A stretch of 64,000 bases of DNA from a virus (taxonomy: Duplodnaviria > Caudoviricetes): positions 19,268 to 83,267 of the IMG/VR virus record IMGVR_UViG_3300030376_004602; one strand, 5' to 3'. A model generated the notes under the pieces. The model worked only from the letters and a program-made list of their open reading frames with translations, ran no database searches and was not told the DNA's origin. Made by a program: the position numbers and the translations under genes. The stretch's first letter is position 1. Each line of letters starts with the position of its first letter. Positions 3,601 to 19,959 of this stretch are shown in pieces.

Positions 3601-3695
3601 TTAGTCAACAAGTTAGATTTACAGATGCTAATGATGCCATATTGATGTACGGTCTAAAGGTAGATCAATATAGGGGACCAGAGTCGGGAAATTAA
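651..3695 (+). CDS. Large ejection/cargo protein (1014 aa) of the virion RNAP locus
   Basis: Long ORF just upstream of the RNAP gene, where crAss-like phages encode co-ejected proteins. No catalytic motif recognised. Confidence 0.7.
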   Translation: MAQYIQTPDFSYEPMPMEAYMQMAKEVAAGYAEGINSANAYLASLPIATGALDDPNGDRAAQFRDQYGSEVEDAIQLYMDTKDKRSLASALTNVTRKMQSDEQLLVHNYLAASSEDILKRHQDNPNGWFGYTLDNSADITKKDENGNIVSNLVLPSEGGGLGAAKSLYGNYLSGYDIAQDTSWIDKFGTSAVKFINEATRTFNPETGKYEFTFQEKKYSNIMDYFKGNPSNEFMESARTLYNSQSNAMTRAYRGKYGYEEGLNKFIEDSFSYRLPMEYSRGMGYDETTPGQYANTTGQTQTPTTELYSADVLANVFGDFGDALSPAARTLVDETLKEARRRERETGKSLRDIAMEDAEFGRRLTEAQQALMAEQIRVNYDQSVEGGKLKQEYTQNITNYFDIDKTGIWQHAQDYGIDAEQLIEFDSRFEIPFINQDVNGIGVPKPIGMSMVDGKYQVLTDEGKRIANEVSILGKGSQLAAMFFGEDFQVTNANKYSQNATYLRNLGRTPGDSPLLPTREVTVDGLFTEGILDPDNQKDRNMYNFLKDLPSLTVNNDVSAYEAMADNFDEGVSNKTLKTQKRDIFEGTPNPLYSLSLGIAPSDERFYNAGLYFDALLEQTKITGLKATDYTEKLADYMRSGNVASGETLVTANAQYQKTLDETEGVQLAKDLYEASTDKDAVFFSQYDVYRLDDTDAEATPFSRYKQSKIAPGDDILKEALDDKGRSQVRINGYSIPSSDKLRGGIKATIGTTPILVIPKNSGQPDKYTDWLNKGQTSLTGPKVYPQVFSGPFAGISGRDVLAYSDFHNVIVETGVIGFGSPNKGGFDSRLAKTIAASPNLDSSGKKLIDGRNNTALENAIPVSDLDDSDLISILNEGTAVGQSATISLNLGYGYRKEDESIFSWDDYFEGFDQNNFISLREADAIAQSQQITDDVEIGKIAELMSKVQTNLKTKQGEDGNSYSVIKGKDFIDMYEEVVGKEPDFSQQVRFTDANDAILMYGLKVDQYRGPESGN
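3686..3692 (+). promoter_or_regulatory. Candidate -1 ribosomal frameshift heptamer G_GGA_AAT
   Basis: X_XXY_YYZ pattern in the zero frame directly before TAA (3693-3695). The -1 frame is open from here to 4492. Confidence 0.65.
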
Positions 3696-4492
3696 CGGCG
3701 GAGACTGAAGAGACAACAGAATCCGCTGAGCCTACACCAGTCTCAGAGCCAGAACCAGAGCCTACTATACCAGAGGTGCCGGCTGTAGAAGAAGTAGTTA
3801 TACCTGTAGAAGAAGCTATAGAAACAGCTGAAGAAGTAGTACAAGCAGTTCAAGAAGATTCAAACCCTGCAACTAATGAAGAAGTAGCAGCAGAAGTATT
3901 AGAAACTACTCCAGAGCTGCTTACTAATCCTATATCAGCTAGCCTTGACTTCTTAGGCATTACAGAAACAGATCCTACTCAGTATGATACAATAGCAAGC
4001 TTTTATCAGTCAGCCATTTCAGATACTACTCTCTTAGCAAAGACTAAGAAAAAACTTGCAACTGAAGTTGCCTGGTGCGCTGCTTTTGCTAACTATATTC
4101 TTAATGATGTAGGTATAGAAACTAAGCAAATGCTTGAAGATTATGATACTAAATATGCAAGAGTAAGGGCTAAAAACTTTATAGATTTAGGAACTCCTGT
4201 ATATAACTCTTCTAAGAATACTAAAAAAGATTTGCAGTCTGCTAAGATTGGGAGCCTTGTAGTTAAAAAAGGAGAAGAGGGGTACCACGTAGGATTCTTT
4301 GCAGGTATCAATCCAGATAACGAGGATGAAGTTCTTATACTAGGCGGTAACCAAAACGATGAAGTAAATGTTACAACCTATCCTCTCAAGCAAATTGTAA
4401 CTATAAACAGCTTAGAAAATGTTCAAGAAGCAGACTCTAAGGTAGTTGAAAAAATCAGTAAAGATATTAAAGAAAGCGGCGCTACTAGATAA
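3692..4492 (+). CDS. Acidic Pro/Glu linker plus CHAP/TIGR02594-like cysteine peptidase (peptidoglycan hydrolase); probably a -1 frameshift extension of the 1014-aa protein, alternatively starting at GTG 3776
   Basis: Motifs TEVAWCAAF (Cys at 4076-4078), YHVGFFAG (His at 4286-4288) and LILGGNQNDEV. Stop-free linker-like codons run from 3692 to the GTG. Confidence 0.8.
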   Translation, partial: LTAETEETTESAEPTPVSEPEPEPTIPEVPAVEEVVIPVEEAIETAEEVVQAVQEDSNPATNEEVAAEVLETTPELLTNPISASLDFLGITETDPTQYDTIASFYQSAISDTTLLAKTKKKLATEVAWCAAFANYILNDVGIETKQMLEDYDTKYARVRAKNFIDLGTPVYNSSKNTKKDLQSAKIGSLVVKKGEEGYHVGFFAGINPDNEDEVLILGGNQNDEVNVTTYPLKQIVTINSLENVQEADSKVVEKISKDIKESGATR

Positions 4493-4496
4493 ATCT

Positions 4497-4504
4497 TATC
4501 TTTG
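4497..4504 (+). promoter_or_regulatory. Bacteroidota sigmaA-type -7 element TATCTTTG
   Basis: Exact TAnnTTTG match in the short gap 17 nt before the RNAP ATG. No clear -33 element. Confidence 0.6.
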
Positions 4505-4521
4505 CATAATATAATTTTCCC

Positions 4522-7500
4522 ATGGCTAAGAAAAAAAAGACTCCTCCACCAATAACTTCTTTAGATAATAGCAGAGGGTACTCTGGCAGATTACATGCAG
4601 GAACCTTTTCAGGAGCTACTAGAGATGCTACAAGTCTTTTTGGAAATGCTGTATTTGCTGAAACTCTTAAGGGCCTTCAAGAAAATGCCGAGTCTAGATC
4701 TAATGACTATAAGATCCTTAGACAACAGGCTGCTAATGAACAAGGTGGATTTGAAAAGTTTGGAACTGCTTTAGTATCAGGAGTATCAAAAGGCCTTGTT
4801 AATGGTGTAAATGGAATTGTTTCTCTTGTACCCTACCCAGATGATGTATCTGCAGAAGGACTGCAAAACTGGAACTGGGATATTATGTCAGATGATTTTT
4901 CTGACAGATCTATGTTGTCTAATTATTTAGATGAAGGCTCTAAGGCTATAGGACTACAAATGCCTATATATGACGAAAATCCCTATAACTTCTATGCAGG
5001 TATGGACGCAGGTCTTACAAGTATTGGAGAGTTTGCTATTCCCGGTAAAATTATTAGTAAGGGAGTAGGTCTTGCTGCTAAAACAGTAGGAAGAGCACTT
5101 AGGGGAGTTGGTAGAGGTGTAAGAGGAGCTACTTCGTTAGGCAGAATGTCTACTAGATCTAGACTTGCAAAGTTTGGAGCTAGGACAGATGACTTTCTAA
5201 CTAGGATGTCTATGAGTCCTAAAAATCAAGCTTTTCTACAAACCGGTGCTTCTGGTTTTGCTATGAATAGATTTGAGGGTACTGTTATGGGCCACCAGGT
5301 TTATGAAGAAACAATGCAAGAGCTAGCACCTGCAGTAGCAGCTGGCCAGCTTACAGAAGAAGAAGCTCAAAGCTATGCCAACCAAGCAGCATTATCTGTA
5401 AGAAATAAGAATGCTGGAATGATGATGACCGACATGTTTGCTATGTATGGCATCTTTAAGGCTAAAGGTATGACTAGGAATCTTCTTACTAAACCTGGTT
5501 TTACTTCTGCTGTTAAAAATAATCTTCTTAGTGCAAAAGCTTGGAATCCTCTTAAGAAAGCTGCAGCTACTAATCCTTTTTATCAAGCACTAGTAGAAGG
5601 TGGAGAAGAGATTATTCAAAGTAATATTCAAAAGCAATCTCAATATGATGCTTTAAAAGGAGCTGAAGCTTTAGCAGCATCTAGAGTAGGTAAAGAAGAA
5701 GAACTTGTATATGTTCCTGACTCAGACTCTTACTACGAAAGATTAAAAGATAATCTATTTAGTAAGGATGCTGCTTTTGAAGGCGCTATTGGGTTCTTTT
5801 CCGGTCCTATACAAAGTGTTGCCCTTGAGCAAGGTATGGGCATAAAGCCTCTACTAGATAATCGTAAGTATAAAAATTACACTAAGGAAATTAATGCTCT
5901 GCAACAGAGTATTAAACCTGGAGGATCTGTAACAGGATTAGCAAAAAAATTAAAAGTCCAGGAGCAGATTGAAGACCTTAAACTAAAGCGAGCACAAGAA
6001 ACATCTAAAGGAGCATACGAAGAGCAGCAAAGAGTTATAGGCGAAGTTAAAGCTGATGTTAAAAATGCTCTGAAAGAAACTGTAAACATGGAGGACCTTA
6101 TAGAAGAGGTTCAGGAAAAAGGAGTTGAAGGGGTAGAAGAGTTGCTAGAAGGAACTGCATTTGTAAATACTGCAGTAAAACATTTTCAGAATGGTACTAC
6201 AGAAAATCTAGAACGTATGTTAAAAGACCTTGCAGAAGGCAAGGGAGACCCAGCTACGTTTGGAGAAAACACTCAGCAGAAAGCAGCTGATCTTTTAACT
6301 GAAATGTTAGAAATGGAGAAGCAATGGCTGCGTTACCATGACTTTGAAAACAAAGCATCTATTTTTGCAGCAATTCAGAATGAAAAAGAGATTGATAAAG
6401 CTATTAATCGTACACAGTCTCAGAAAGAAAATGCTCAAGCTAAAATTCTTACTCAGCTAAACGAGTATGCGCCTAGTAATAACTATGGTTTTGATGAGAA
6501 TGGTAACCTTACTATTACCCCAAAGTCTGAAGAAGAGAAAAAGTTAGACGATGACCTACCCGGTCAACAAACATCTTTGTTTCCAACAAACGATGAAGTC
6601 CGTGCATTTTATGAAAGAATGCCAGAAAAAAAGGAACTGGATGAGGTTAACCAAACTCAAAACACTTTTAGAGAGGTTAAAGGCGAAGTATCAAAGTTCC
6701 TCAATAATATTGCTTCAGGCAAAGGACAGAGAGCTGCTAAGAAGCTTAGAAAGCAAAGAGAAAAAGCTGCAAGAAGAGCTGCAAAAAGAATTATGGCTAC
6801 TAATAAGGTTGAGGCTGGAGAAAAAACTAAAGCCAAAACTAATTCTGAAAAGTCTGCTATATCTAACGCTCAAGCTAAGGTAAATTCTGACTCTAAGATT
6901 GTAGTAAAAAAAGTAAAGCCTAAGGCTCCTACAGCCCCACCGCCGCCTACTTCTGCTGAAAAGAAGTCAAAAGAAGAAAAAGAAATAGAAAAAGGGAAAG
7001 CTGCAGAAACAAACAGGAGAACTACTGCTAAAAATGGCGAACCTCTAAAATCAGTTTTTGCAAAGGCAATAGCAAAAGCTGCAGCAAAGTCTAAAGAAAA
7101 AGAGCCTGTAAATGATGATAGTGCTTCCGAGGGGGAAAATTTTACAAAGTCTACAGAAAATAAATCTTCTCATATTCAAGGTAGAACAGACGGTGTTACT
7201 AATGATTCTGAAAATGCTTTCTGGACTCTTTCTGATCCTAGTCTTACAGCTGAAGGAGATGTAATAACTTTTCAGGTAGAGGACCAAAATATTGGGGCTG
7301 CAAATGACCCGACTAGCCCTACAAGAGGTCTTAAAGTAATTGATGTAAAAGGTCGTAAAAAAGAAATAGCAAAGCACGAAAACTCTACGTACGGATCTAA
7401 TATTTCTGAGGACCAAGCTGCAGATGATGCCGAGGCTATTGCTATTTATAATGAAAGAGGCGACAGAATAGGGTATGTGGGATCTCCATTAGCTATTTCT

Positions 7501-10500
7501 TCTAAAAGAAGAAATATGACTACGGAAGAGATGCTAGAGGAAAAAGAAAACCTTCGTACAATAAGAGCTCAGATCCTATCTAAAACTCGTAATGGAGAAG
7601 CTGCAAAAGGTAAGATTAACTCTATAACCAAACAGTATACTAACTTCAAAGAGGAAGGGTCTCCAGACTCAAGATCCATAGACGTATTTGGAACAGATGT
7701 TATTATTGGTGTTGCTACTGCAGAGGGAGTTACATTTGAGGGAGGCTCTAATAACCTTACTCAAGCTGCAGGCTCAAAAATAGAAGCTAAAATGGAGGAC
7801 TCTGAAAGACTAGACGACCTTACACCAGGTCTTCCTTATGCTTTTGTCCCTGTTAGAAAAGATAACAAAGGAGCCATCTACTATGAGGCATTCCCCCTAT
7901 TACCTCAGGATCTAAATGCAGGTTTTATTAATACAGTTATCTATGCCCTAAAGTCTTGGGCAGGCGGTATCGATGCTAATATTGATAAACAAAATAGAGA
8001 CGAGGCTTCAGCAACATTAGGGCTTAATCTTAAAAAGAATACTAAACTTCGCAGCTTGTCTATGCTGTTAGAAAGATTCTTTTTACCACGTACAGAACAT
8101 CCTTACGTAGCAGATGATGAGACTAGAACTTATATCTATTTAAACCAATCTAATTCAGAAAATGAAGTAATTGAGCTTGTTGAAAATGTTGGAGGACAGC
8201 AGTTCGTAAGAGGGACAATTAGAAGAGGGGAACAGTTAACTGAGGATACTATTGCTACCTTAGAACAGTTTCTTGCCAATGAGCAGGTACAGATTGACCT
8301 AAGAAATATTGATGGAATACCTTACATCATTACAGACCGTGATGGTAATGTAAAAGAGTCAATCGAGTTGGCCGACTTTAAAACCCACGTTCTAAAGAAT
8401 ACTACTACAGGTCTTAATCCTGTGGAGTCTGTACTTAACGCTACAGGCCGTACTATTTTTTATAAATCTCCTAAAGTTACCTTTTCTGTAGAGAGTGATA
8501 GATCTTTAGATACCTCAGCACCTGAAAATGAACAGGAAGAAGAAAAGCCGCCATGGGATACTTCTAAAGAAAGTGACCTAACTATAGAGCAAATATCTAA
8601 ACTACCATTTGTAGAAAGAATACCAGCCCTTATTAAAGCAGGTATAATTGCATCTGATGTAACATATAACGTAGGTAAAAGATTTCCTATAATAGTAAAT
8701 ATTGGAGGAGTAAAAGTAGGATTCTACAGAAGCTCTGAAGGAACAGGAGGTAAGAAAAAAGGTGCTTGGACACCTATGTTTGGATACGGCGAGGATGGAG
8801 GTAATCCTTGGTTAATTAAAGGAAATATTGCTACACAAGTAAATGTTAACTATGGCAGCAGTGCTATACAAGAGTATGCGGATATACTTAACAAAACTCT
8901 TAATTGGGACCTTAGTATAGATAAAGGACAAGTAAAAGATCACCCTTTTTATAAAGAACTTAGACTAGTTGAGAGCACGCAAGCATTTAACAAGGAGTTA
9001 TATGGGGTGGAAAATCTAGGTATTATTAATGGTGAAACAGATGTTAGCGGTTTTATTAATTCTAAAGTACAAGAGATTAACGCCGCTACAGGTAAACCTT
9101 CATACGATGAGGCCGATCAAGTAGATCCTGATATCCTAAGCGACCTAGAAACAGACGATGATTTGCCATCTTCATCCGAAGACTCTTTTATCCGAGGTAT
9201 TGAAAAAGAGGAATATACGGAAGAAGAGAGGAATGAATTAGAAGACATTATTTCAAGGTATGTTAAAGATCCAGAGGACGGTTATGATGCAGTAATATAC
9301 TTTACCCAAGGGACTACACCCCCTGGACGCGGAATAGAGGACTTTTTATCTGTTGAAGCTAATCTTAATAGAGACCCCCTCTATAAAAAATGGCAGGAAA
9401 AACATACTGAACGTATAAAAAAAGAATCAACTAGGGATACAGCTCCAGATGTTGACGATTTAGTAGGAGACGCTGTACCACCTGAAGTAAAAGAAGAGCA
9501 CAATAAACGACATATTAAAGGCCTTACTCCTACTCAAAACTTTGAGATAGTAGGGCACTTGGCTAATACTATGTTCAGAAAGCTAGTAGAGCTTACTACT
9601 GATCAAAGAGTTAAGAAAGTATCTAGAAATAAACTATATCAAGAAGCGCTAGAAGAAACTATGGCTTCTTTTGATAAATATATTGCAAGACTAGAAAAAA
9701 ACTTAGCCAGAAAGCAAGCTCAAGAAAACGAGGCTTTAAAGAATAAGATGGAGGCTAGAATAGCAGGTCTTAAAAAGTACAAGCAGGCTGTAGAAAACGA
9801 AGCTGCAAAGACTAAAGAGCTTGCTACTCAGAAGCTTAATCAGTTTGAGGGTGTTAAGGGCCAAAGGTCTGAAGAGGATTTAGAAAATATAGAAGAGACT
9901 GCACACGAAAGAAGAAACTTTAGCGAGGACTTTTTCTTGACTGTAGACAGTAAGAAGAGCACATCTAAAGCTCTAAGAAAGTTCCTAAGCAGCATACCTT
10001 TAATCAAGACTAAGACTCAGACTATTAAGAAGGGCGATGATAACATTACTGTGTCTAGTAAAGCTATGCCTGCCCGTACTACATTTGGTGCTCCAAAGTA
10101 TGCAGACTTTGATTCTGTGTATAATAAACTACACTCTCTTGAAGTAGGATCAGATGCTAATTTATCTAACCAACTTACTAAGCTAGCACAGCTGTACGTA
10201 GACTATCCAGGTATGAAGCAGGAGCTCAACTGGCTACCAGGTCTAATAGTAAGTCTAGGAATAGATAACTTGCAAGGCACTAAGAAAAATAATAGAGGAG
10301 AAGAAAAAACCCTAGCAGATGTATTTTTGGAAGAAGCTTTAGGGCCAGACGATGCTGACCTTAGTAATCTAGTTAAGCTTATGGCTTCTACTGACTTTGG
10401 AGTTCCGGCAGGAGAAAAAATCCAAAGACAGTTTGCTATTAATATGTCTAAGGCTAAGGTAAAGGCTCCACTAGTTCTTTATCGTGCTGTACAAAAAGGA

Positions 10501-13500
10501 GGCAAAATTAAGTTTGAGGTAAACCTTACAGACCATAATAATACTGATAACTCTAAGCAGATCATAAATGAAATGCAGGAAGGCTTCCTAAATAAGCTGT
10601 ATACATATAATCCTGAAACAGAAGAGTACGAGCCAGATGAGACTGCTTTCGAGAGAGCTATTCAGCTTTTAGAAAGCTACAAGAAGACTCCTCCAACCCA
10701 GAAAAATAGTGATAACTACAAGGACCTTAGAAAGCAACTACAAGAGGTCCTAGGTATATCCATCTCTACTCAAACTTTCCATACTCTTGCTACAAAAGGA
10801 TATAGACTTGGAAGGCGTAAAGTTCTTCTTAATAGAAAAAATAAGAACGTATTTAGTATTGACGGGGCTCCATTTAGAGTGTTATTAGACGCTCTTAAGA
10901 GTTCTAAAGGCAAGCCATTCAACCCTGAGGTAAATGTCTTTACAGATAATGCTATTAAGAATCTAGCACAGATGGAATCTCTATCTCAGACAGCTACTCT
11001 TAGTAATGCTTTCCGTGTAGGCGATAAGACTATCTATACATATACAGAGCATAACTATGCTACCTCTCAGATTCAGACTATTCTAACTGATCCAAAGTAT
11101 AGAGAGCAGCTACAGAACACTGTCTTTGCAGGTGAAAGTCTTTGGCTACACATGATGTCTCCTATGGGAGGACAAGTCCTAGAGATAGACGGAGATGTTG
11201 ATGCTGGTTCTAGTATTGAACTAGGTATTCTAAACTTCCGCCCTGTCAAAGAAAGAAAGGAATCTAACCTAACTACTGATGACCTAGATGGTCAGAATAT
11301 GGACGATAACCTCTTTACAAGGTTGGCTCTATTTACTGCAAATGCTAGTGCTAGTAGAAAGTCTATTGTAAAAAAGGACGAAAACAACAAAAATATTTAC
11401 TCTTTTAAAAGCCGTAAAAGCACTACTGTACCTCTTGCTTACTCTGATAAACATTCAGTACTAACAGTAACAACAGCAATGCCTGTCTTTACTATTGGTA
11501 AGGGGGACGGGGTTACCTCGGATACCATTAATATTTTTTACGAACATGTATTGATGGCAGAGATCTCTCGTATTCAAAATATGTTTGATATCGATGGAAC
11601 TAACGATGCTGCATATGATGCCGGTAAGTCTGCTTTCCACCTAATGCCTGAGATGAATACTACTACGGTAAAAGATAGAGGTGGAGAAACAGACACTGTT
11701 GCAAACTATGCTGCTAGAGGAGCTTTTGATCCAACATCTGTTAATTATGATGAAAAGGTTGTAGGAGCAACAAAGAGAGCACTGGGAGATCAACTTAATG
11801 TTCTTATTAATGAGCAGATAGAAGACTTTGCAAAAGCAGGTATTAACCAAGTAGCAGGAAAGAGTGAGGCTACTTTTGTATCTAGCGAGTACATCAAGAT
11901 GCTAAAAGCCCAGCATAAAAATGCAGGAGTAAAATTAGAAGGAAATAAGATTACTAAAGCTGTAGCTGCTGATTATGTGCTTAATCATATGCTGTCTACT
12001 GCAAACATGTTCCAAATGTTTGTAAAAGATCCAGCACTGTATACTAAAACAGATGGTGAAGGAAATGTAGACGCTGCTTCTACCTTAGAAAATATTCAGA
12101 AAAGACTTGCTGCAGTCATTGCACCAGGTACTGCTACTGCTATAGAAGAAGGTAATGATGCATATGTACAACTCTTTGCTAATGATGTTAAGTATTCTGA
12201 GTTCTTAGGAGAAGGAATTAAGGAGTACTTCAAAGGCATTAAGAATAAAAAGCACAGAGAGTCTTACAAGGGCGCTGAGATTACCGATGGTCAGGAGTTA
12301 ATTACCTACCAGGAGTATCTAGGCACAATGGTTAGCCAAGGTCAGATTACAAAAGCAGAAAGAGCTCAGATAGAAGCTGTCGTAAAAGATCCAAATAAAA
12401 AGATTCCAGAGTGGATGATGGACGTTCTTTTTGGTGCAGAAAAACCAGTTGCTGTAGCTGATAAGTTCGTCACACTTAAAGATGGTCAGAGAATAGAAAA
12501 ACGTGTCTATGTTAAAAGCTCGGGTCTACCTTTAATTCCTAAATTTACTAAAGGTACAGAGCTAGAAAATCTTAGAAAAGCTTTAGAACAAATACAAGAA
12601 AAAAGCGGTCTTCCGGTTAGACTTGCATTTAGTTCAGCAGTAAAAGTAGGATTGCCTGAAACTGCTAAAAACACTAATATCCAATATACAGAAAAGGATA
12701 TAGAATCTCTAAAAGAGGAACTACCTGAAGGACTATCTGCTGAAAGAAGGAATGAAGAAGAAGAAAAACTAGATGCTTTACTAGGTACTATTAAGCCTGT
12801 TAAGGAACTAGTGTCTATGTTTAATGGAGACCTTACAGAAAAAGAACTTAATAGTGATGAGGCTTTCTTAGAAGATGAATCTCTTCGACCTCCTAGGCAG
12901 ATTCTACAACGTAAGTATTGGAGAATCCAGCAAGCTACTCCTAACAAGAATAAAGACATAGCTACTAGAGGTACTCAGGAGTCTAAGATTATTCTGTCTG
13001 AAGTAAAAGAAGCTTTTGGAGAAGAAGCAGGTACTAAGCTTATTGAAGATTGGAACAGCCTACATAGTAAACTATTTGGTCTTCGTATTCACGAACTAGA
13101 AAGAGAGATTCTAAACCCAGACGGGTCTATAGACAGAAAGGCCTTAGCTGAGTTCCTAGACAGAGATGCTAATGAAGGAGGAGTTAGTGTCAATACTAGA
13201 TATGGATTAGAGGTAGATCAAAACGGAAAGTTCGTTATACCTCTGGATCTATCCGCTGGTACATTAGAATATCAAACTCTTATTAATGCTATAGCTAATA
13301 AGAGGATTGCTCAGAAGAAAGTAAAAGGACAGTCTACTGTATTAATGACTGAGTTTGGCTTCTCTATTAGAGAGGGCCAAGATCTATCAGACAGTGGTAT
13401 TGTTTGGACTCAAGGGTTTGATTTTCAACATGGTAAGCTTAAGCCTGCTAGAGTAGAAAACGGAGTTGTTAAGCCTGCTCAGGTTATCGTGCCTAACAAG

Positions 13501-16500
13501 TTCTTTGTAAACGGTAAGAGGGTAAATCTTAAAAAGTACATTATCAAAGGTGAGCAAGGCCAGATGATTCTGGATACTAATCGTATGCCTGCTGAAATAC
13601 TAAAAGGGTTTGGATTCCGTATTCCTACTCAAGGGTATAACTCTATGGCAGGTATTGAGATCGTAGGTTTCTTGCCAGAATCTATGGGAGACGTTGTCGT
13701 AGCCCCAGGTTCATTTGTAAACCAAATGGGATCTGACTTTGATATTGATAAAATGTTTAACTACTTCTATAAGCTAGAAAGAAGTACAATATCTCGAAGA
13801 GCGGTTACGGATGCAACTATTGCAATTAGTGACGAAATAGCGGCAATAGAGTCTGGTAAGTCTAGCCTAGAAGACTTTAAGAAAAGAGGAGATAGTGAAG
13901 AAAATTACCAAGCTTATTTAGAAGATATTAATGATCAGATAAAGTCTTTAGAAGAAGAGCTACAAAATCTGAAAAGTAAGAGTACTACTTTTGTAAAAGT
14001 AACAGCGGATGATTTAAAAGATAAACCTTTTAATGAGCTTACTGAAAAGGAGATTGCTAGACTAGAAGATGCCTTGCTTAATGAAGGTCTCGACATGAGA
14101 CTAAAGATTATGGGCAAGAATGAAATCTACCAGACTATGTCTGCGCCTCTTGACTTTGGTCTATTAAAGTATAAAGACGAAGAAGGAAACGATACAGGTC
14201 TTAAGTTCTACTTTAAGGATAAGAGGATGTCTACTAGAGCATCTAGCCGTAACCCTCTTGCACCTGGATATCATACACAGAAGTATCAAGATGCTAGGGG
14301 AGCAGGAGCAGGAGTTGGTGTATTTGCTAGAGGTATTACCTTCCAGTCAATGGCTCAATCAGGTGTAGATGTAATTCCAGGAGCTGACTTTAAGCTTGGT
14401 AGATTTAAGTCAAATAACATTACTGACTCAAAAACTGTTACTAATAATAAACGCTCTAAGATAGAAGTCCTTACAGCATTCTTATCTGCCTCTCTTGATA
14501 ATGAAAAAGAGCAGATCATGAACTACCTAAATATTAATGATGATACTTTTAGTACAGCTACAGCTATGATTCACTCTGGCTTTGAGGAGGATCTTGTTTT
14601 GGCATTCTTGGAAAGTCCTGTTTTAAGACTACTAGCAGAAAATAAAAGATCAAGAACTAAAAAAACTCAGATAGCCTCATTTTCAATATTTAATAGGCTG
14701 GTATTAGACTTAGTGCCAAAAGATTATAAAAACCTGACCGAAAAAGAAAAGGAAGAAGAAAGAGAAAAAATAATAGACGAGGCACGTAAAGAGCTAGCAG
14801 GCTCTTCTTTTGAAACTAAAGAAGAAACTTTTAACAGGTTAATCCAAAACTCTGATGTTACTTTAAAATATACTCCTCCTAAGATAGGAGTAAGTAGTGC
14901 TAAAATACAGTTCTTAAATGAGGAAGGGAAGCCTTTAGAAAAAGATGAATTAAAAAGAGCAAAACTTTTAGCTATTGGGTCGCTAGATTTAACAGGACAA
15001 TTCAAAGATATATCAACGGATATACTTGCAGCACAAAGACTACTAAATGTAGATTCAGGAGGACTTGGTAAAAATGCTTATGAAGCGTATTCAAAACTAG
15101 AAGACTATATAGGCTTAGCAGATTTACAATTTGGAATATCGTTTCCTCACCCTATTTTTAAAGCTCTTATAGGAGAGCACAGGACTCTGGTTTATCCTGC
15201 AAAGATGGAAGGACAAGAAGAAGTAAATGCTGAAGAACTTGCAGAATATTTAACAAACGAAACTGAGCTAATAAATCAAGGCTTCATTAGGATAGCAAAA
15301 GCTCCAGGTAATACAGACGTATACTTTTTAAAACCAGTTTCAACTCCAGCTACTATTTTTGCAGAGTCTATGGGGCTTACATCTCGTATATACGAGGATA
15401 CAATGCCTGTATTAGTTGACTATGTTTTAAATAATGTAGACCTATCCTATCCAGCAATTCCTAAAAGTCTTCGAAATCAGTTTCGTGCAGACAAAAAGGC
15501 TAAGATTGTACATGATACTCTTAGATCCATTCTATTCTCTTCTACCGAAAACTGGATATCTGGTCAGTTTGAAGAGGCTACGGGACTAAGTACTCAGCCA
15601 ACACAGCAAACTAGTGATACAATAAATATATATGCAGGAACAAATGAGAATGCTGAGTTAAGTAATTTTGCTAACAGACCTGTAATGGATCCGTTAGGGG
15701 CTGAGTTCAAAAATGTAGAAGCAGCATTTCAATATGCTAAAACAAATTTTGCAGACGGAGACAATGAGTCTATCAAAATGAAACTCCAAAATGCTACTGG
15801 TGCACAAGCTAAGGCATTAGGTAGAAAGATTAAAGGTTTAGATGTAAAAGCTTGGGATGAAAACTCTGCAGCTATAATGAAGGGCCTCATAAAGGACTCT
15901 TTTGAGCAAAATCCTAAAGCTCTTGAAAAGCTATTAGCTACAGGTAATGCTACATTAACTCATACACAAGATAAGACTAAGTACCGCGAATTGTTTCCTA
16001 AACTATTAATGGAAGTAAGACAGGAGTTAGGCGGTTCTCAATCAACAGCCTCAAGCCTGGTGCAGATTCGTAGAGCACTTATGTATGGAGATAACACTCT
16101 AGCACTGCGGGTTAAGGAAGCTATTAAAGATCGTAGACTTTCTAAGAACCCATTCCTAAAGTCTCTAGTTCTATCTACTAAAGCAGGCGAACGTCATAAG
16201 GTGACCTTTGCAAACTTTACTCCTGATGGTATGATGGATGAGGACAAAGCAGATGCATTTGCTCAACTCTTTCTTATGCCTGACCAGAGTCCAATAGAGG
16301 GATTAAAACTAACTCCCGCACAGCTAGGAGCTCTTCTTGTAACTTACTCTATGGTAACAGGAGGTAACCAAAAGGCTCTGGAGTTTGTTAGGTTTGTTCC
16401 TAACTCTTATCTAGTAGGAACAGGTTTCTATAAAGCTATCAATGATAAGCTTACTGAAACTTTATCAACTCGTTCTGGAAAAACAAATCTTAGTATGTCT

Positions 16501-19500
16501 ATTATGTCGCAGCTTGTTCAACACAATCCTACGTTAACTTATAGAAAGAAAAGAACTCAAACAATTAAGAAAATAGAAGGGTCAGATAACTTTACTATTT
16601 CTGGTTTAAAAGTAGAAGGATCAAAAAGTTTAGGCACCTTAAGAGCTGTTGATAAAAGCCAAAGGGTACCAGAAACCGTTCCCTTTTTACATACTATTTC
16701 TAAAAAAGGAAACATTTCCTTGTATTACTTTGATGAAGATCTTAACACTCCTGGTAATAAAGCTATATATACTAAAATTGATGTTTTAGGAGATGGAGGA
16801 GACTTAAACGAGTTTTCTGCAGGTCTAATTAATGCCCAGTCACAAAATGCATTTGGTATTTCTGTTGTACCGTCTAATAAAAAGGCATACGTAGAGGAGT
16901 CTCTTCAGCAAGAGGAAACTTCTGAGCCAGATGCTAAAGGAAAAATAGACTTAGAATCTCTTATACAGAAAGTAGTAAATAAAACAGTAGAAAAAGTAAT
17001 CAAAGTAAATACAGAGCCTGGAGTTAAGGTATCAAGAAAACTAGAGTTAAATTCAAATGGAGAAAGTGATCCTATAAAAACTATAGAAGCAGTCGCTACA
17101 GGCTCTGACAGTCCTATGTTTAGACAACTTGCTGCGGCATTCTTAACTAGAAAAGACGATCTTAAAAATATAACGTTTAAAACCAAAGCTCTTAAAGATG
17201 GTAAAGATGCTGGAGGATCTTATACTTATGATAGCAAAACTATAGAGCTAAGCTACTCTAACGACAAGTTATATAATGAATATGCTATCCTTCATGAGTT
17301 TGGACATGCTTTGACTAAAGATGCTATAGTAGCATTTGAAAAGGGGGGTACCTACCCTAATGCTAAGGTTAAGCAGGCAATGAAAAATATTGCCGAAGTT
17401 CAGAATCTATATGTTCAATACCTAGAAGCACTAAATCCTGTAGAGCTTGAGGCTTTCAAGAAAAAGTATGATGAGTATAGGAGAAGAAAGGGACTAAGCG
17501 GTAAAGATAGAGCTAAACTACCTCCTCTAGACTTTAGTAATAAAAAAGAACTAGGTAAGTACTACGGAGGTCTTAAGCTATCGGAGTTTGTTACTATGGT
17601 ACTATCTGATGAGGTATTGCAAGCAGAGCTTGATAAAGTAATGCCTACGTTAGAAGGAGCAGCTGCTGCATCTGAAAAGAGTTTGTTTAGAGAACTACTA
17701 GATGCTATTAAAGAAATTCTTGAAGGTCTTACAGGAGTTAGCCTGTCTAAGTATACTGTCGAGCAAGCAATGACTATTGTCACTCAAGGTATGGATACAA
17801 AAGTTCAAGGTAATCCTGGGTCTACTGCATCTACAGATACTACTAATGATAGTGCTAAAGAATTTGCTAAAAAGTTTGCGCCTAAGATAAATCTTAAAAT
17901 AAAGGGAGATAAGAATAAAGATTTATTACCAGGAAGTGAAGCCTCTAATGTGTTTGACTCTAATCCTAAACTAGCCAATCAAGTATATGGAGCTTTAGGA
18001 CTTACTGTTGTGAACGAGTCTTCTACTAACATAGCTTCTACAATTTATGAGTTGATCCCAGATATTACAGAAAGCAAAATTGATGAAATATATAATAACT
18101 ATGTTTCACTAATAGGAAAAGCCAGAAAGGATAAAGAAATATCTAAAGATGCTTTCAAAAAATTATTGAGAAAGTACCAAGTCTTTAACTACAAGGATAC
18201 CTACATATTTGGGCAGTATGATATGGACAATGGGCTATTTGTAACTAGAATAAACTCATCTCCTACTTCTAAAGAGCTACTAGCTGAAGCTTTACCTACA
18301 TTAGTAAAGCAAGGGATTGATTTTGCATCGTTTGTGCCTAAGGATGTAGCTCAGAAATATAAGAGAAGTGGGTACTCTCTAAGTAAAGAAGGTTTTGCCT
18401 ATAACTTTAAGGGGGAAGATATGGTTAAATACCTAGCTGTTTCTAATCCAAACATATCTCTAAAAGTCTTTGGTAAAACTTTAGAAGAAATCTCTGCTAA
18501 AGAAATAAAAGACTTTAGCAAGGATCAGACACTAAGCTATAAACCAGTGGAGATAAAAGGAGAGCTAATAGAAAAGGCAGGTAATGATTTATCTAAGATA
18601 CTAGAAACATACCTTAATCAATTTGGTATAGTAGTAAAGGATGTAAGTACTATAAAAAATGCTCTAAATATTGATGAATTAGGATTTGCTGATATCTTGT
18701 CTAAAGTTGCTTATGTAGAAAACAACAAGGATCTTCCTCCTATTGCAGGAGAGTTTATTGCCTACATGATGCAGTATAACCCTCTAGTATCTGAGATAAT
18801 AAAAGAGCTATCACAAACAGAAAACTATAAAAAATTAGACAAGTCAGAGTATTTTAAAATTGTAGGAGGATTAATCTCTGATGATCTACAAAATAAACTA
18901 GATGAAAATTATTCTCAGTCTTTACTACAAAAGTTAAAGCAGTTAATACAAGAGTTTTTCAGCCTACTAAGAGGTACTCGTATAGATTTAATAAACAAGA
19001 ATGTAGGTATCATTTCTAACAATATTCTACAACAAAATAAAAAGCTAATTACAGCTTCTTTGTATAAGCCTGGAGCTTATGGAAAGCCTACTAAACAAGT
19101 TAGTTTAAAAGAGGCAATGGCTTCTGATAAATTTGGTTCTTCTATCATCAACAAGTTAGCTAAGGAAGGCTTTATATTAACAGGTTCTACCTCTCTAGGA
19201 GAACAAGGTACTATACAAAGACCAGATGAAAATCTACTGCATGATATTGACTGGGTAAGTCCTTTTAATAGAGAAAAGACTGCTGAAAAGTTTTTAAAAC
19301 AGTATCCAGATGCTATAAAAATTAGAGACATACAAGGAGATAGTTTTGTTACAGATACTTGGATTATATCCCCTGAAGGATATAGTATAAAAAATCTAAA
19401 CAAACAATCTGATTACAATATAATTACTTCTTACGATGTTGTTGATAACAAAGGAAATATTGCAGGTACATACAGACTAGAAAAAAAGGCTAAACAAAAA

Positions 19501-19959
19501 AGAAAAGAAGAAGTTGTATCAGGAGTTGAAGCTAAAGTTATAGACTTCTTCTCTTATGATGACTTCAATCAATTAACGCCTTTTGTAAAAGATAATGTGG
19601 AGCTTGCTAATTGGAAAGAAATTTTTAAAGCCAAGCTGCAGTTTGGAAGATATAAAGATATTTGGGACTTCAATAGATTTATACCTAATGAAAATCTTTC
19701 TGAAATAACTCCACAACAAAAGCAAATAGCTCAACAAAGATATTCTGACTATGTAGCTCAGACTGGGAAACAAGATATAGAAGGGTTTAAAGACTTTGTC
19801 AGAGAACCAGCCCAGCAAAGAGATAGTTTACCAACTTCAAATACTGTAGATTTGGGGGTAGATATAGTAGATTTCTTAAAACAACTAAGCCCAGAAGAGC
19901 GTAAGTTCTATAACAAGCTATTCCAAGAAGGACAGTTCACAGTAAAATGTAGAAAATAA
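4522..19959 (+). CDS. Virion-packaged two-barrel RNA polymerase polyprotein (5145 aa), crAss-like
   Basis: GFRIPTQGYNSM (RxP at 13618-13626) followed by GSDFDIDK (DFDID at 13735-13749), the crAss/phi14:2-type RNAP catalytic motif. Size and context fit. Confidence 0.92.
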   Translation: MAKKKKTPPPITSLDNSRGYSGRLHAGTFSGATRDATSLFGNAVFAETLKGLQENAESRSNDYKILRQQAANEQGGFEKFGTALVSGVSKGLVNGVNGIVSLVPYPDDVSAEGLQNWNWDIMSDDFSDRSMLSNYLDEGSKAIGLQMPIYDENPYNFYAGMDAGLTSIGEFAIPGKIISKGVGLAAKTVGRALRGVGRGVRGATSLGRMSTRSRLAKFGARTDDFLTRMSMSPKNQAFLQTGASGFAMNRFEGTVMGHQVYEETMQELAPAVAAGQLTEEEAQSYANQAALSVRNKNAGMMMTDMFAMYGIFKAKGMTRNLLTKPGFTSAVKNNLLSAKAWNPLKKAAATNPFYQALVEGGEEIIQSNIQKQSQYDALKGAEALAASRVGKEEELVYVPDSDSYYERLKDNLFSKDAAFEGAIGFFSGPIQSVALEQGMGIKPLLDNRKYKNYTKEINALQQSIKPGGSVTGLAKKLKVQEQIEDLKLKRAQETSKGAYEEQQRVIGEVKADVKNALKETVNMEDLIEEVQEKGVEGVEELLEGTAFVNTAVKHFQNGTTENLERMLKDLAEGKGDPATFGENTQQKAADLLTEMLEMEKQWLRYHDFENKASIFAAIQNEKEIDKAINRTQSQKENAQAKILTQLNEYAPSNNYGFDENGNLTITPKSEEEKKLDDDLPGQQTSLFPTNDEVRAFYERMPEKKELDEVNQTQNTFREVKGEVSKFLNNIASGKGQRAAKKLRKQREKAARRAAKRIMATNKVEAGEKTKAKTNSEKSAISNAQAKVNSDSKIVVKKVKPKAPTAPPPPTSAEKKSKEEKEIEKGKAAETNRRTTAKNGEPLKSVFAKAIAKAAAKSKEKEPVNDDSASEGENFTKSTENKSSHIQGRTDGVTNDSENAFWTLSDPSLTAEGDVITFQVEDQNIGAANDPTSPTRGLKVIDVKGRKKEIAKHENSTYGSNISEDQAADDAEAIAIYNERGDRIGYVGSPLAISSKRRNMTTEEMLEEKENLRTIRAQILSKTRNGEAAKGKINSITKQYTNFKEEGSPDSRSIDVFGTDVIIGVATAEGVTFEGGSNNLTQAAGSKIEAKMEDSERLDDLTPGLPYAFVPVRKDNKGAIYYEAFPLLPQDLNAGFINTVIYALKSWAGGIDANIDKQNRDEASATLGLNLKKNTKLRSLSMLLERFFLPRTEHPYVADDETRTYIYLNQSNSENEVIELVENVGGQQFVRGTIRRGEQLTEDTIATLEQFLANEQVQIDLRNIDGIPYIITDRDGNVKESIELADFKTHVLKNTTTGLNPVESVLNATGRTIFYKSPKVTFSVESDRSLDTSAPENEQEEEKPPWDTSKESDLTIEQISKLPFVERIPALIKAGIIASDVTYNVGKRFPIIVNIGGVKVGFYRSSEGTGGKKKGAWTPMFGYGEDGGNPWLIKGNIATQVNVNYGSSAIQEYADILNKTLNWDLSIDKGQVKDHPFYKELRLVESTQAFNKELYGVENLGIINGETDVSGFINSKVQEINAATGKPSYDEADQVDPDILSDLETDDDLPSSSEDSFIRGIEKEEYTEEERNELEDIISRYVKDPEDGYDAVIYFTQGTTPPGRGIEDFLSVEANLNRDPLYKKWQEKHTERIKKESTRDTAPDVDDLVGDAVPPEVKEEHNKRHIKGLTPTQNFEIVGHLANTMFRKLVELTTDQRVKKVSRNKLYQEALEETMASFDKYIARLEKNLARKQAQENEALKNKMEARIAGLKKYKQAVENEAAKTKELATQKLNQFEGVKGQRSEEDLENIEETAHERRNFSEDFFLTVDSKKSTSKALRKFLSSIPLIKTKTQTIKKGDDNITVSSKAMPARTTFGAPKYADFDSVYNKLHSLEVGSDANLSNQLTKLAQLYVDYPGMKQELNWLPGLIVSLGIDNLQGTKKNNRGEEKTLADVFLEEALGPDDADLSNLVKLMASTDFGVPAGEKIQRQFAINMSKAKVKAPLVLYRAVQKGGKIKFEVNLTDHNNTDNSKQIINEMQEGFLNKLYTYNPETEEYEPDETAFERAIQLLESYKKTPPTQKNSDNYKDLRKQLQEVLGISISTQTFHTLATKGYRLGRRKVLLNRKNKNVFSIDGAPFRVLLDALKSSKGKPFNPEVNVFTDNAIKNLAQMESLSQTATLSNAFRVGDKTIYTYTEHNYATSQIQTILTDPKYREQLQNTVFAGESLWLHMMSPMGGQVLEIDGDVDAGSSIELGILNFRPVKERKESNLTTDDLDGQNMDDNLFTRLALFTANASASRKSIVKKDENNKNIYSFKSRKSTTVPLAYSDKHSVLTVTTAMPVFTIGKGDGVTSDTINIFYEHVLMAEISRIQNMFDIDGTNDAAYDAGKSAFHLMPEMNTTTVKDRGGETDTVANYAARGAFDPTSVNYDEKVVGATKRALGDQLNVLINEQIEDFAKAGINQVAGKSEATFVSSEYIKMLKAQHKNAGVKLEGNKITKAVAADYVLNHMLSTANMFQMFVKDPALYTKTDGEGNVDAASTLENIQKRLAAVIAPGTATAIEEGNDAYVQLFANDVKYSEFLGEGIKEYFKGIKNKKHRESYKGAEITDGQELITYQEYLGTMVSQGQITKAERAQIEAVVKDPNKKIPEWMMDVLFGAEKPVAVADKFVTLKDGQRIEKRVYVKSSGLPLIPKFTKGTELENLRKALEQIQEKSGLPVRLAFSSAVKVGLPETAKNTNIQYTEKDIESLKEELPEGLSAERRNEEEEKLDALLGTIKPVKELVSMFNGDLTEKELNSDEAFLEDESLRPPRQILQRKYWRIQQATPNKNKDIATRGTQESKIILSEVKEAFGEEAGTKLIEDWNSLHSKLFGLRIHELEREILNPDGSIDRKALAEFLDRDANEGGVSVNTRYGLEVDQNGKFVIPLDLSAGTLEYQTLINAIANKRIAQKKVKGQSTVLMTEFGFSIREGQDLSDSGIVWTQGFDFQHGKLKPARVENGVVKPAQVIVPNKFFVNGKRVNLKKYIIKGEQGQMILDTNRMPAEILKGFGFRIPTQGYNSMAGIEIVGFLPESMGDVVVAPGSFVNQMGSDFDIDKMFNYFYKLERSTISRRAVTDATIAISDEIAAIESGKSSLEDFKKRGDSEENYQAYLEDINDQIKSLEEELQNLKSKSTTFVKVTADDLKDKPFNELTEKEIARLEDALLNEGLDMRLKIMGKNEIYQTMSAPLDFGLLKYKDEEGNDTGLKFYFKDKRMSTRASSRNPLAPGYHTQKYQDARGAGAGVGVFARGITFQSMAQSGVDVIPGADFKLGRFKSNNITDSKTVTNNKRSKIEVLTAFLSASLDNEKEQIMNYLNINDDTFSTATAMIHSGFEEDLVLAFLESPVLRLLAENKRSRTKKTQIASFSIFNRLVLDLVPKDYKNLTEKEKEEEREKIIDEARKELAGSSFETKEETFNRLIQNSDVTLKYTPPKIGVSSAKIQFLNEEGKPLEKDELKRAKLLAIGSLDLTGQFKDISTDILAAQRLLNVDSGGLGKNAYEAYSKLEDYIGLADLQFGISFPHPIFKALIGEHRTLVYPAKMEGQEEVNAEELAEYLTNETELINQGFIRIAKAPGNTDVYFLKPVSTPATIFAESMGLTSRIYEDTMPVLVDYVLNNVDLSYPAIPKSLRNQFRADKKAKIVHDTLRSILFSSTENWISGQFEEATGLSTQPTQQTSDTINIYAGTNENAELSNFANRPVMDPLGAEFKNVEAAFQYAKTNFADGDNESIKMKLQNATGAQAKALGRKIKGLDVKAWDENSAAIMKGLIKDSFEQNPKALEKLLATGNATLTHTQDKTKYRELFPKLLMEVRQELGGSQSTASSLVQIRRALMYGDNTLALRVKEAIKDRRLSKNPFLKSLVLSTKAGERHKVTFANFTPDGMMDEDKADAFAQLFLMPDQSPIEGLKLTPAQLGALLVTYSMVTGGNQKALEFVRFVPNSYLVGTGFYKAINDKLTETLSTRSGKTNLSMSIMSQLVQHNPTLTYRKKRTQTIKKIEGSDNFTISGLKVEGSKSLGTLRAVDKSQRVPETVPFLHTISKKGNISLYYFDEDLNTPGNKAIYTKIDVLGDGGDLNEFSAGLINAQSQNAFGISVVPSNKKAYVEESLQQEETSEPDAKGKIDLESLIQKVVNKTVEKVIKVNTEPGVKVSRKLELNSNGESDPIKTIEAVATGSDSPMFRQLAAAFLTRKDDLKNITFKTKALKDGKDAGGSYTYDSKTIELSYSNDKLYNEYAILHEFGHALTKDAIVAFEKGGTYPNAKVKQAMKNIAEVQNLYVQYLEALNPVELEAFKKKYDEYRRRKGLSGKDRAKLPPLDFSNKKELGKYYGGLKLSEFVTMVLSDEVLQAELDKVMPTLEGAAAASEKSLFRELLDAIKEILEGLTGVSLSKYTVEQAMTIVTQGMDTKVQGNPGSTASTDTTNDSAKEFAKKFAPKINLKIKGDKNKDLLPGSEASNVFDSNPKLANQVYGALGLTVVNESSTNIASTIYELIPDITESKIDEIYNNYVSLIGKARKDKEISKDAFKKLLRKYQVFNYKDTYIFGQYDMDNGLFVTRINSSPTSKELLAEALPTLVKQGIDFASFVPKDVAQKYKRSGYSLSKEGFAYNFKGEDMVKYLAVSNPNISLKVFGKTLEEISAKEIKDFSKDQTLSYKPVEIKGELIEKAGNDLSKILETYLNQFGIVVKDVSTIKNALNIDELGFADILSKVAYVENNKDLPPIAGEFIAYMMQYNPLVSEIIKELSQTENYKKLDKSEYFKIVGGLISDDLQNKLDENYSQSLLQKLKQLIQEFFSLLRGTRIDLINKNVGIISNNILQQNKKLITASLYKPGAYGKPTKQVSLKEAMASDKFGSSIINKLAKEGFILTGSTSLGEQGTIQRPDENLLHDIDWVSPFNREKTAEKFLKQYPDAIKIRDIQGDSFVTDTWIISPEGYSIKNLNKQSDYNIITSYDVVDNKGNIAGTYRLEKKAKQKRKEEVVSGVEAKVIDFFSYDDFNQLTPFVKDNVELANWKEIFKAKLQFGRYKDIWDFNRFIPNENLSEITPQQKQIAQQRYSDYVAQTGKQDIEGFKDFVREPAQQRDSLPTSNTVDLGVDIVDFLKQLSPEERKFYNKLFQEGQFTVKCRK
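8572..9093 (+). other. Inserted domain of unknown function within the RNAP (from about aa 1351)
   Basis: Globular-looking segment (VGFYRSSEGTGGKKKGAWTPMFGYG) between two acidic low-complexity linkers. Confidence 0.4.
15616..16035 (+). other. NADAR (YbiA-like) domain within the RNAP (aa ~3699-3838)
   Basis: LSNF, VEAAFQYAK, AKALGR, W....IM, FEQN, LLATG, THTQD and LLMEVRQEL appear in the order seen in YbiA/NADAR. Confidence 0.8.
17060..17790 (+). other. Zincin-like metallopeptidase domain within the RNAP
   Basis: AILHEFGH (HExxH at 17293-17307) and a later LSEFVT glutamate. Confidence 0.75.
19150..19680 (+). other. Pol-beta superfamily nucleotidyltransferase domain (MenT/AbiEii-like signature) near the RNAP C-terminus
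   Basis: ILTGS (GS at 19183-19188), HDIDW (DxD at 19243-19251) and KAKLQFGRYKDIWD (19627-19668). Confidence 0.65.

Follow-up and report, generated by a model that had tools for sequence, protein, structure and literature searches.

What is a phage polypeptide of 5145 residues for, in which a virion RNA polymerase shares one chain with unrelated enzyme domains? The question is raised by an open reading frame (ORF) in a window of 64,000 nucleotides, the 3' 64 kb of the 83-kb record of a marine crAss-like phage (IMG/VR record IMGVR_UViG_3300030376_004602, positions 19,268 to 83,267; completeness estimated at 74%). An earlier reading of this sequence, hereafter the original prediction, had taken the ORF for a polymerase that doubles as a delivery platform for several enzymes. 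Our analysis favors, with a probability that we put at roughly 0.6, a giant crAss cargo protein built by fusion and enlarged by mobile inserts, which would be packed into the particle and injected so that its enzymes are ready before phage genes are expressed. As an architecture, this polyvalent protein preloaded with effectors is well supported.

The core of the protein belongs to the crAss-like virion RNA polymerases by its catalytic motif, by homology of its body and by its position in the cargo block. The sequence GSDFDIDKM at residues 3070-3078 is identical to residues 1359-1367 of gp66 of phage phi14:2, residues 2121-3373 align with residues 489-1659 of this enzyme in BLASTP (E-value 1.7e-38), and the solved gp66 structure (PDB 6VR4) is matched at an E-value of 6e-30. 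In phi14:2 the gene order is g067 (1797 residues), g066 (2180 residues, the polymerase) and g065 (1421 residues), all annotated from tandem mass spectrometry of virions. Here, what phi14:2 and crAss001 make as three separate proteins is fused into one scaffold: a counterpart of gp67/gp47 (second numbers from phage crAss001), the two-barrel polymerase gp66/gp50 and, from gp65/gp49, the zincin domain. The scaffold carries three mobile inserts: a gp67-type island, a NADAR ADP-ribosyl-glycohydrolase and a cassette with GNAT-like, helical and nucleotidyltransferase parts. The original prediction had announced at least four modules beside the DFDID core in one ORF, set off by low-complexity linkers. 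NADAR, the HExxH zincin and the nucleotidyltransferase were each located and its "unknown domain" is best placed at residues 1357-1526, so that the named modules exist, although a further GNAT-like module (residues 4496-4671) had gone unnamed. Linkers were seen at both borders of NADAR (STQPTQQTS before it, GGSQSTASS after it) and after the zincin (GNPGSTASTDTTNDS), together with a K/A/P-rich low-complexity stretch at residues ~730-860, inside the conserved N-terminal region.

The NADAR insert is recognized by the Pfam profile PF08719 with an E-value of 2e-12 (48.1 bits, for a curated cut-off of 35.1) and matches PDB entries 8BAU (2e-8) and YbiA (2B3W; 1e-3). The Glu and Lys of 8BAU are aligned with E3733 and K3740, whose Glu-x6-Lys spacing is that of E36/K43 in AdfN (gp30.3) of phage T4. 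AdfN strips the ADP-ribose that DarT1 attaches to phage DNA, and AdfN and other phage NADARs neutralize DarTG1; mutation of E36/K43 weakens the anti-DarTG1 rescue and abolishes DNA de-ADP-ribosylation in vitro (PMC11825919). The insert is absent from the four collinear relatives of the protein (P0003-P0006; 2865-4988 residues, 41-79% identity over the conserved parts). NADAR domains were found elsewhere, in P0008 (residues 169-287), P0016 (residues 3112-3261) and P0022 (residues 895-1080), at the N-terminus of cr126_1 gp003 (44% identity) and in P0018 (residues 4160-4337), where the domain is 58% identical to that of our protein versus 27% for the polymerase.

Closer to the C-terminus, the cassette (residues ~4445-5063) combines the GNAT-like domain, the helical part and the nucleotidyltransferase. 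No family emerged by sequence, either from its profile against PDB sequences or from Pfam scans of 26 homologues, and the cassette was resolved by structure prediction only. An AlphaFold2 model of residues 4466-5080, built with 49 homologues, reached a mean predicted local distance difference test score (pLDDT) of 88 and a predicted template modeling score of 0.84. With the GNAT-like domain, the top 50 Foldseek matches were all GNAT, and VIA-align superposed 149 residues on 3ey5_A (Z 10.9, root-mean-square deviation (rmsd) 3.3), with 29 chains at Z>=8 that were all GNAT among the matches listed; an ESM Atlas search with this part returned just unnamed viral clusters <0.8. The nucleotidyltransferase, modeled alone (residues 4850-5080), gave a pLDDT of 92.5. 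Its best VIA-align match is MenT1 (Z 9.7, rmsd 3.2, 139 residues aligned), followed by LnuA (9.3), TM1012 (9.1), ANT(2'') (8.8), MenT3/TglT (8.7), JHP933 (7.5) and MenT4 (6.5), with more nucleotidyltransferases at lower ranks, and Foldseek concurs (JHP933, 4e-4). The RNA-tailing enzymes score Z 7.1 (Megavirus poly(A) synthase), 6.1 (CCA-adding enzyme) and 4.2 (vaccinia poly(A) polymerase). In addition, G4888, S4889, H4907, D4908, D4910, D5008 and K5045 are near-invariant across 40 homologues, with HDID at residues 4907-4910. The model and these residues confirm a minimal nucleotidyltransferase of the Pol-beta type; we file the domain as MenT-like and not under DUF1814/AbiEii, for which the sequence gave no support. 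In fold, it comes closest to toxins that block the acceptor ends of tRNA and to small-molecule adenylyltransferases. Between the two domains lies the helix AGEFIAYMM, opposite which the distant homologue P0164 has an intact HExxH (PHEYAHIY) and P0080 and P0165 have EExxH; the helical part may be a degenerate zincin-like domain that lost its metal ligands.

The extra segments thus find enzyme folds in sequence and structure searches (NADAR, GNAT-like and Pol-beta nucleotidyltransferase), and they are not invariant, since the closest relatives lack both NADAR and the cassette, and distant ones have them at other positions, some beside ART-PolyVal, the hallmark domain of polyvalent proteins. Two of the outcomes that would have refuted the original prediction are thus not observed. 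A module map was obtained by BLASTP of 20 giant relatives against the 5145-residue protein. Residues 16-1388, 1645-3690 and 3836-4444 and the last 45-100 residues form blocks common to P0003-P0006, except that in the first block P0006 reaches residue 791 only and P0005 lacks the region; residues 1389-1644, NADAR and the cassette are variable. The cassette is missing from P0004 and P0005, whose polymerases are 58-79% identical to ours, but keeps 52-70% identity in P0008-P0014, where the polymerase is either only 22-27% identical (P0008, P0010, P0011) or absent. In P0008 it is close to the C-terminal end, and P0014 has it at the N-terminus; in P0010 it precedes the polymerase and in P0011 it lies within it. 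An exhaustive HMMER search with residues 3946-5145 collected 266 proteins of 84-6332 residues, mostly through cassette matches and at any position, the most widespread part being residues 4685-5063. At the level of sequence, these comparisons provide direct evidence for horizontal exchange of modules, since module identity far exceeds scaffold identity and the modules are absent from the nearest relatives.

Exchange also takes place at a defined slot between the zincin and the C-terminal tail. This slot holds nothing in P0005, a cpYpsA SLOG domain in P0004, cpYpsA plus a diverged copy of the nucleotidyltransferase part in P0003, cpYpsA plus a superfamily 1 (SF1) helicase in P0150, and the GNAT-like/helical/nucleotidyltransferase cassette in the phage studied here; P0006 carries DUF7831 further upstream. 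Whatever precedes it, the same tail of ~45 residues ends all relatives aligned over the zincin, and it may serve as a connector that docks into the next cargo protein. ART-PolyVal directly follows the cassette in P0009 and stands ~570 residues after it in P0014. In their genomes, the cargo protein P0009 directly precedes a compact polymerase of 1670 residues, and P0014 directly follows a polymerase protein. Cassettes thus move among all members of the cargo chain, and it is this chain in its entirety that forms the platform. The original prediction is supported in part: its multi-enzyme architecture is borne out, but its polymerase-centered framing was too narrow, as the cassette also occurs in polymerase-free cargo proteins.

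Two side observations concern the ends of these proteins. The p-crAssphage protein gp45, likewise terminated by a cysteine, has a tail with which the C-terminal tail of our protein aligns weakly (E-value 0.19). In one relative (L008:9470-9997), a GIY-YIG homing-endonuclease-like gene with seven cysteines lies between a Cys-ending polymerase protein and a cargo protein starting with MATC; it is a mobile element inserted at the cargo junction.

Could the add-on enzymes serve the injected polymerase, as a virion-borne transcription kit of the poxvirus type? The nucleotidyltransferase would then tail or prime early transcripts, NADAR would clear ADP-ribose from the template, and the role of the GNAT-like domain would be to adjust the polymerase or a cofactor. 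Such a role would suit modules fused in cis to a polymerase, an arrangement that recurs in cr126_1 with NADAR, and poly(A) polymerases (Megavirus, vaccinia) as well as CCA-adding enzymes do figure among the fold matches of the nucleotidyltransferase. However, its best fold matches are toxins and small-molecule nucleotidyltransferases rather than RNA-tailing enzymes, the cassette and NADAR are equally frequent in polymerase-free cargo proteins and small stand-alone proteins, and the closest relatives P0004 and P0005 transcribe without these add-ons. We consider this explanation unlikely.

In contrast to the inserts, the zincin proved to be a conserved part of the lineage and not the variable add-on that had been supposed: it is kept in P0003-P0006 and has a homologue in phi14:2 gp65. 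HExGHALT (H4258, E4259, H4262) and LxEFxTM (E4355) show no variation when the region is aligned with six relatives. Using hhalign, the zincin region was aligned with residues 189-358 of phi14:2 gp65, including its HEIMH and HEF motifs (probability 92%, E-value 5e-7). The claim that zincin domains are reported in crAss RNA polymerase loci holds, both from Drobysheva et al., who describe a zincin-like domain in gp65 orthologues, and from the p-crAssphage record, in which gp45 is annotated as "RNAP associated protein fused to zincin protease". When gp45 was compared with our zincin profile by hhalign, the C-terminal tail alone was aligned, which does not support homology to that copy, and Pfam Peptidase_M78 reached 14.4 bits on the zincin region, under its cut-off of 22. 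The domain belongs to the polymerase gene and not to the next one, an arrangement shared with Flavobacterium phage FpV4 (HExxH at residue 4065 of 4287). The zincin profile also weakly matches (E-value 0.05) chain G of PDB 9sfn, an "Internal virion protein" of 1337 residues, around an LHEAVHA motif, which hints that internal proteins of other phages carry a related metallopeptidase.

A number of observations weigh against a set of working, injected enzymes. The NADAR insert covers positions 9-123 of the 163 positions of PF08719, the last 40 being unmatched, and THTQD is followed by a shortened loop and then LLMEVRQEL, so that the C-terminal part of the domain is reduced. In the GNAT-like domain, the Q/RxxGxG/A loop that binds the pyrophosphate of acetyl-CoA is absent; the beta4-alpha3 loop reads NSSPTSKEL instead (SSPxxKEL in relatives), and on account of this replacement we file the modeled domain as GNAT-like only. 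For the nucleotidyltransferase, there was no PDB sequence match, and no nucleotidyltransferase family appeared at E<=1 among the 25 Pfam families most often matched by 26 homologues. In phage N4, encapsidation depends on the region holding the zincin, and the protein enters the capsid uncut (PMC5512222); the presence of a zincin need not mean processing, because the N4 protein stays intact. Finally, packaging, presence in the particle, processing, cell entry and the activities of the modules are steps that we infer, and this too counts on the negative side. As to base composition, the G+C content of the cassette is 0.30-0.33, compared with 0.366-0.369 in the flanks on both sides. Lower G+C was rejected as a sign of recent transfer, G+C at third codon positions being not different, and it stems mostly from amino-acid composition.

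Some of these observations would suit extra segments that are decayed or structural spacers, packaging signals or ejection aids without catalysis. The lack of the usual cofactor loop in the GNAT-like domain, a helical part resembling a zincin stripped of its metal ligands, the shortened NADAR and the encapsidation role of the N4 region can all be read in this way. Nevertheless, E3733/K3740, HExxH plus its downstream Glu, and the GS, DxD, Asp and Lys of the nucleotidyltransferase are kept across many diverged homologues, and spacers would not be expected to swap as intact units at 52-70% identity between distant phages. Decay or a purely structural role thus appears to us a decidedly improbable account of the segments as a whole. 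The comparisons demonstrate how the protein is built, which folds it has, that catalytic-type residues and motifs are conserved and that relatives trade modules.

How such a protein would reach the host is suggested by its cysteines. There is a single one in 5145 residues, C5143, three residues from the C-terminus, and it faces the single cysteine, Cys5, of the next cargo protein, of 1436 residues. Cys-containing non-cargo genes of the window have 0.3-1.75% cysteine, and at a rate of 0.5% a single cysteine in 5145 residues has P ~2e-10. Facing cysteines are also present in phi14:2 (gp67 C1797/gp66 C3 and gp66 C2179/gp65 C3), in crAss001 (gp47 C2339/gp50 C5 and gp50 C2404/gp49 C5, with gp47 on the other strand) and in p-crAssphage (gp45 C1956/gp44 C3), and the rule holds in cr126_1, cr3_1 and FpV4 as well. 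Among 172 metagenomic relatives, 74 start with M.{0,4}C and 97 end with C.{0,3}. At the junction where gp67 and gp66 are fused in our protein, there is no cysteine. This pattern suggests an end-to-end tether, which is probably a disulfide by analogy with the gp27 Cys1715-gp26 Cys5 bond seen by cryo-electron microscopy in cyanophage A4, and it supports modules riding in a chain that is ejected as a unit. In crAss001, gp47, gp49 and gp50 were detected in virions and a passage of the cargo through the tail in a partly unfolded state was proposed; the low cysteine content of our protein fits such a passage. Together with the virion homologues and the position in the cargo block, this near-cysteine-free composition points to packaging and ejection of the whole chain.

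The same data bear on a precursor that would be cut before assembly, so that only the polymerase is packaged and the accessory enzymes act late in the producing cell. A conserved zincin is at hand for such a cut, and Drobysheva et al. propose that fused polyproteins are cleaved into their components. Yet, cysteine is no more frequent in the accessory modules than elsewhere in the chain, and the tail with the junction cysteine follows them, which places them inside the chain and not on a disposable end. Furthermore, late-acting enzymes need no fusion to cargo, yet relatives always place them in cargo proteins. We find this scenario hard to sustain and give it little credence. As to an assembly or sequencing artefact merging separate genes, we found no support for it beyond a record estimated only 74% complete, and it can be practically dismissed, given nine member sequences for the identical protein in public data (cluster P0002), collinear relatives of 4405-4988 residues from other samples and a comparable fusion of 4287 residues in the isolate FpV4. 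With its frame uninterrupted over 5145 codons, the ORF is a genuine giant cargo protein, and the ORF seen in the original prediction is confirmed.

For the preloaded cargo protein, we propose the following course of events. The polypeptide would wait in the capsid and, like its homologues, enter the cell either together with the DNA or in front of it, so that the add-on enzymes would be in the cytoplasm by the time phage genes begin to be expressed. The zincin may cut the chain into working pieces and release the modules. NADAR might then remove ADP-ribose from guanines of the phage DNA, or soluble ADP-ribose signals, in response to DarT-type defence, while the nucleotidyltransferase and the GNAT-like domain might modify host RNA (with tRNA ends as the precedent) or other host molecules. 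It is family resemblance only that suggests these counter-defence and host-takeover roles. A bolder version, which we put forward as tentative, is that the cargo chain acts as an injected effector array whose cassettes are traded between phages at fixed slots, notably the one between zincin and tail, and freed by the zincin and/or by reduction of the cysteine links. The host range of this very abundant order would then depend partly on the cassettes carried. The array would include NADAR, the MenT-like nucleotidyltransferase and the GNAT-like transferase here, and SLOG, ART-PolyVal and helicases in relatives. The features on which these proposals are built are collected in Table 1.

Table 1. 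Positions of the features of the 5145-residue cargo protein and of the cargo gene that follows it (nucleotides numbered from the first letter of the window)
Feature	Residues	Nucleotides	Strand	Basis or remarks
ORF of 5145 residues	1-5145	4522..19959	+	Fused cargo-chain protein: gp67/gp47-like + virion RNA polymerase + zincin + inserts
Conserved N-terminal region	16-1388	4567..8685	+	Counterpart of phi14:2 gp67 / crAss001 gp47
gp67-type island	1357-1526	8590..9099	+	58.8% identity to phi14:2 gp67 residues 1364-1533
Variable stretch	1389-1644	8686-9453		Not present in P0003/P0004
Two-barrel virion RNA polymerase (gp66/gp50 type)	1645-3690	9454..15591	+	phrog_16227, 6VR4, gp66 match
Catalytic DFDID	3072-3076	13735-13749	+	DxDxD motif of beta'-like double-psi beta-barrel
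NADAR insert	~3691-3835 (Pfam core 3709-3816)	15592..16026	+	PF08719; E3733, K3740
Conserved region ending in zincin	3836-4444	16027..17853	+	Conserved in P0003-P0006, P0015, P0016, Flavobacterium phages
HEFGH	4258-4262	17293-17307	+	
Downstream Glu ligand	4355	17584-17586	+	E4355
Cassette	~4445-5063	17854-19710		
GNAT-like fold (predicted)	4496-4671 (model residues 31-206)	18007..18534	+	AlphaFold2, Foldseek, VIA-align
Helical/beta part	4672-4863	18535..19110	+	Model secondary structure, alignment column
Pol-beta-type minimal nucleotidyltransferase, MenT/LnuA/ANT(2'')-like (predicted)	4864-5063	19111..19710	+	G4888 S4889, D4908, D4910, D5008, K5045
Conserved C-terminal tail	5101-5145	19822..19956	+	VDLGxDIxDFLKQLxPEERKFYNxLFxEGQxTVKC
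Single cysteine of the ORF	5143	19948-19950		
Next cargo protein	1436 residues	19959..24269	+	Counterpart of gp65/gp49, without zincin; single cysteine Cys5
Single cysteine of the next cargo protein	5	19971-19973		

The N-terminal third of the scaffold is less well connected to known proteins. The conserved N-terminal region is 60% identical to P0003/P0004 and 27% to P0007 in BLASTP, and residues 71-431 match a cr108_1 protein; Pfam and PHROGs scans of the N-terminal 2600 residues gave no match. By position, the first ~1640 residues take the place of gp67, and sequence supports this in one island only, the rest of phi14:2 gp67 being undetectable outside it. The island overlaps the variable stretch, is for the most part lacking in P0003/P0004 and has only 6 homologues of 561-2000 residues. 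It had no Pfam match and no usable ESM Atlas match, and its profile with 7 homologues found nothing in PDB.

The genomic setting is that of a crAss-like phage, with a crAss-type terminase, portal and major head protein encoded in the window. Upstream of the 5145-residue gene come, in order, a crassvirus muzzle protein, a DUF5872 protein, cargo protein 1, a protein of 1014 residues and a frame with a CHAP-like peptidase; the presence of crAss_MUZ and crAss_CARG1 in the same record places the gene in the cargo block. The 1014-residue gene is cargo-2-like, and the order of the block matches that of crAss001. The frame after the 1014-residue gene (3776-4492) has a weak CHAP peptidase match (E-value 0.0012) and a phrog_1259 tail-lysozyme match. 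In the 1186-residue gene upstream of the window (L009:13539-17096), DUF5872 at the C-terminal end is the sole domain found; ART-PolyVal was not recovered there by the phage-record search or Pfam, which does not show its absence. Directly downstream, the start codon of the 1436-residue ORF overlaps the stop codon of the giant one. Its product has no HExxH and gives weak collinear BLASTP matches to phi14:2 gp65 in its C-terminal part (E-values 0.05-0.24).

crAss-like phages are among the most abundant gut viruses and are common in the sea, and we know of no account of how they handle host defences in the first seconds of infection. If the add-ons are injected, these phages would carry swappable counter-defence and host-modifying enzymes that need no gene expression, for which our analysis offers NADAR as a candidate against DarT-type systems, and the MenT-like nucleotidyltransferase with its GNAT-like partner domain. 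Besides, the defined slot can be surveyed across thousands of metagenomic crAss genomes and would yield a map of the arms race. Conceptually, the polyvalent protein would be extended from N4-like to crAss-type virion polymerases, and nothing is overturned.

Among known systems, the closest are gp67-gp66-gp65 of phi14:2 and gp47-gp50-gp49 of crAss001. They share with our protein the two-barrel polymerase with GSDFDIDKM, the gp65-type zincin, the position after muzzle and cargo proteins, the near-absence of cysteines except at ends facing the next protein, and an island 59% identical to gp67. Unlike in these phages, gp67, gp66 and the zincin part of gp65 here form a single ORF with the zincin on the polymerase side, and phi14:2 has no counterpart of NADAR or of the cassette. 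Fusion is in itself known: the isolated Flavobacterium phage FpV4 has its 4287-residue fusion with HExxH near the end, and fusion in the crAss polymerase block together with the zincin was already published by Drobysheva et al. Similarly, NADAR on a crAss polymerase protein is visible in the GenBank annotation of cr126_1 gp003 (YP_010111697.1, "DUF1768 domain-containing protein", 2402 residues); its phage belongs to the Asinivirinae, the subfamily that also includes phi14:2 and crAss001. That protein also unites NADAR and the DFDID core in one ORF, with NADAR N-terminal, before the polymerase instead of after it, and without the GNAT-like/nucleotidyltransferase cassette.

For the individual enzymes, the NADAR fold and the Glu-x6-Lys pair are shared with T4 AdfN, also phage-encoded (PMC11825919), and with the DarG1/NADAR hydrolases (PMC11543638). 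AdfN differs in being a free protein made after infection, whereas the predicted NADAR domain of our phage is embedded in a cargo protein, would be at work from the first second and has a shortened C-terminal loop. The predicted nucleotidyltransferase resembles MenT1, MenT3 (TglT), MenT4, LnuA, ANT(2''), JHP933 and TM1012 in fold (Z 8.7-9.7 for the best, over ~130-139 residues) and in its GS, DxD and third Asp; in contrast to these enzymes, it has no sequence match to DUF1814/AbiEii or Pfam and no antitoxin partner within the ORF, and it lies behind a helical domain in a giant protein.

The likeness to polyvalent proteins drawn by the original prediction is upheld for the architecture. Polyvalent proteins, which occur in phages and conjugative elements (Iyer, Burroughs, Anand, de Souza, Aravind 2017, PMC5512222), likewise combine unrelated enzyme domains in one virion-associated polypeptide around a zincin-like metallopeptidase (MPTase) hub, with variable architectures and genes among late or virion genes; they include N4-like virion polymerases fused to MPTase, ART, lysozyme or PBECR domains. 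Our protein has at least two unrelated effector-type domains, the zincin hub and a shuffled architecture, and its relatives P0009 and P0014 contain ART-PolyVal. By the description of Iyer et al. (2017), the crAss cargo chain would thus count as a polyvalent-protein system. The crAss two-barrel polymerase is, however, unrelated to the T7-like enzyme of N4, and an insertion slot before a cysteine-bearing tail is not described there. In the same paper, NADAR has 0 occurrences and the Pol-beta nucleotidyltransferase is listed apart from the domains called phage-only, and our literature search found no paper linking Crassvirales with polyvalent proteins and none on NADAR in crAss polymerases. What is new in comparison with these systems is the crAss two-barrel polymerase chain as a polyvalent platform, its GNAT-like/nucleotidyltransferase cassette, the slot before the tail and the documented swapping of modules.

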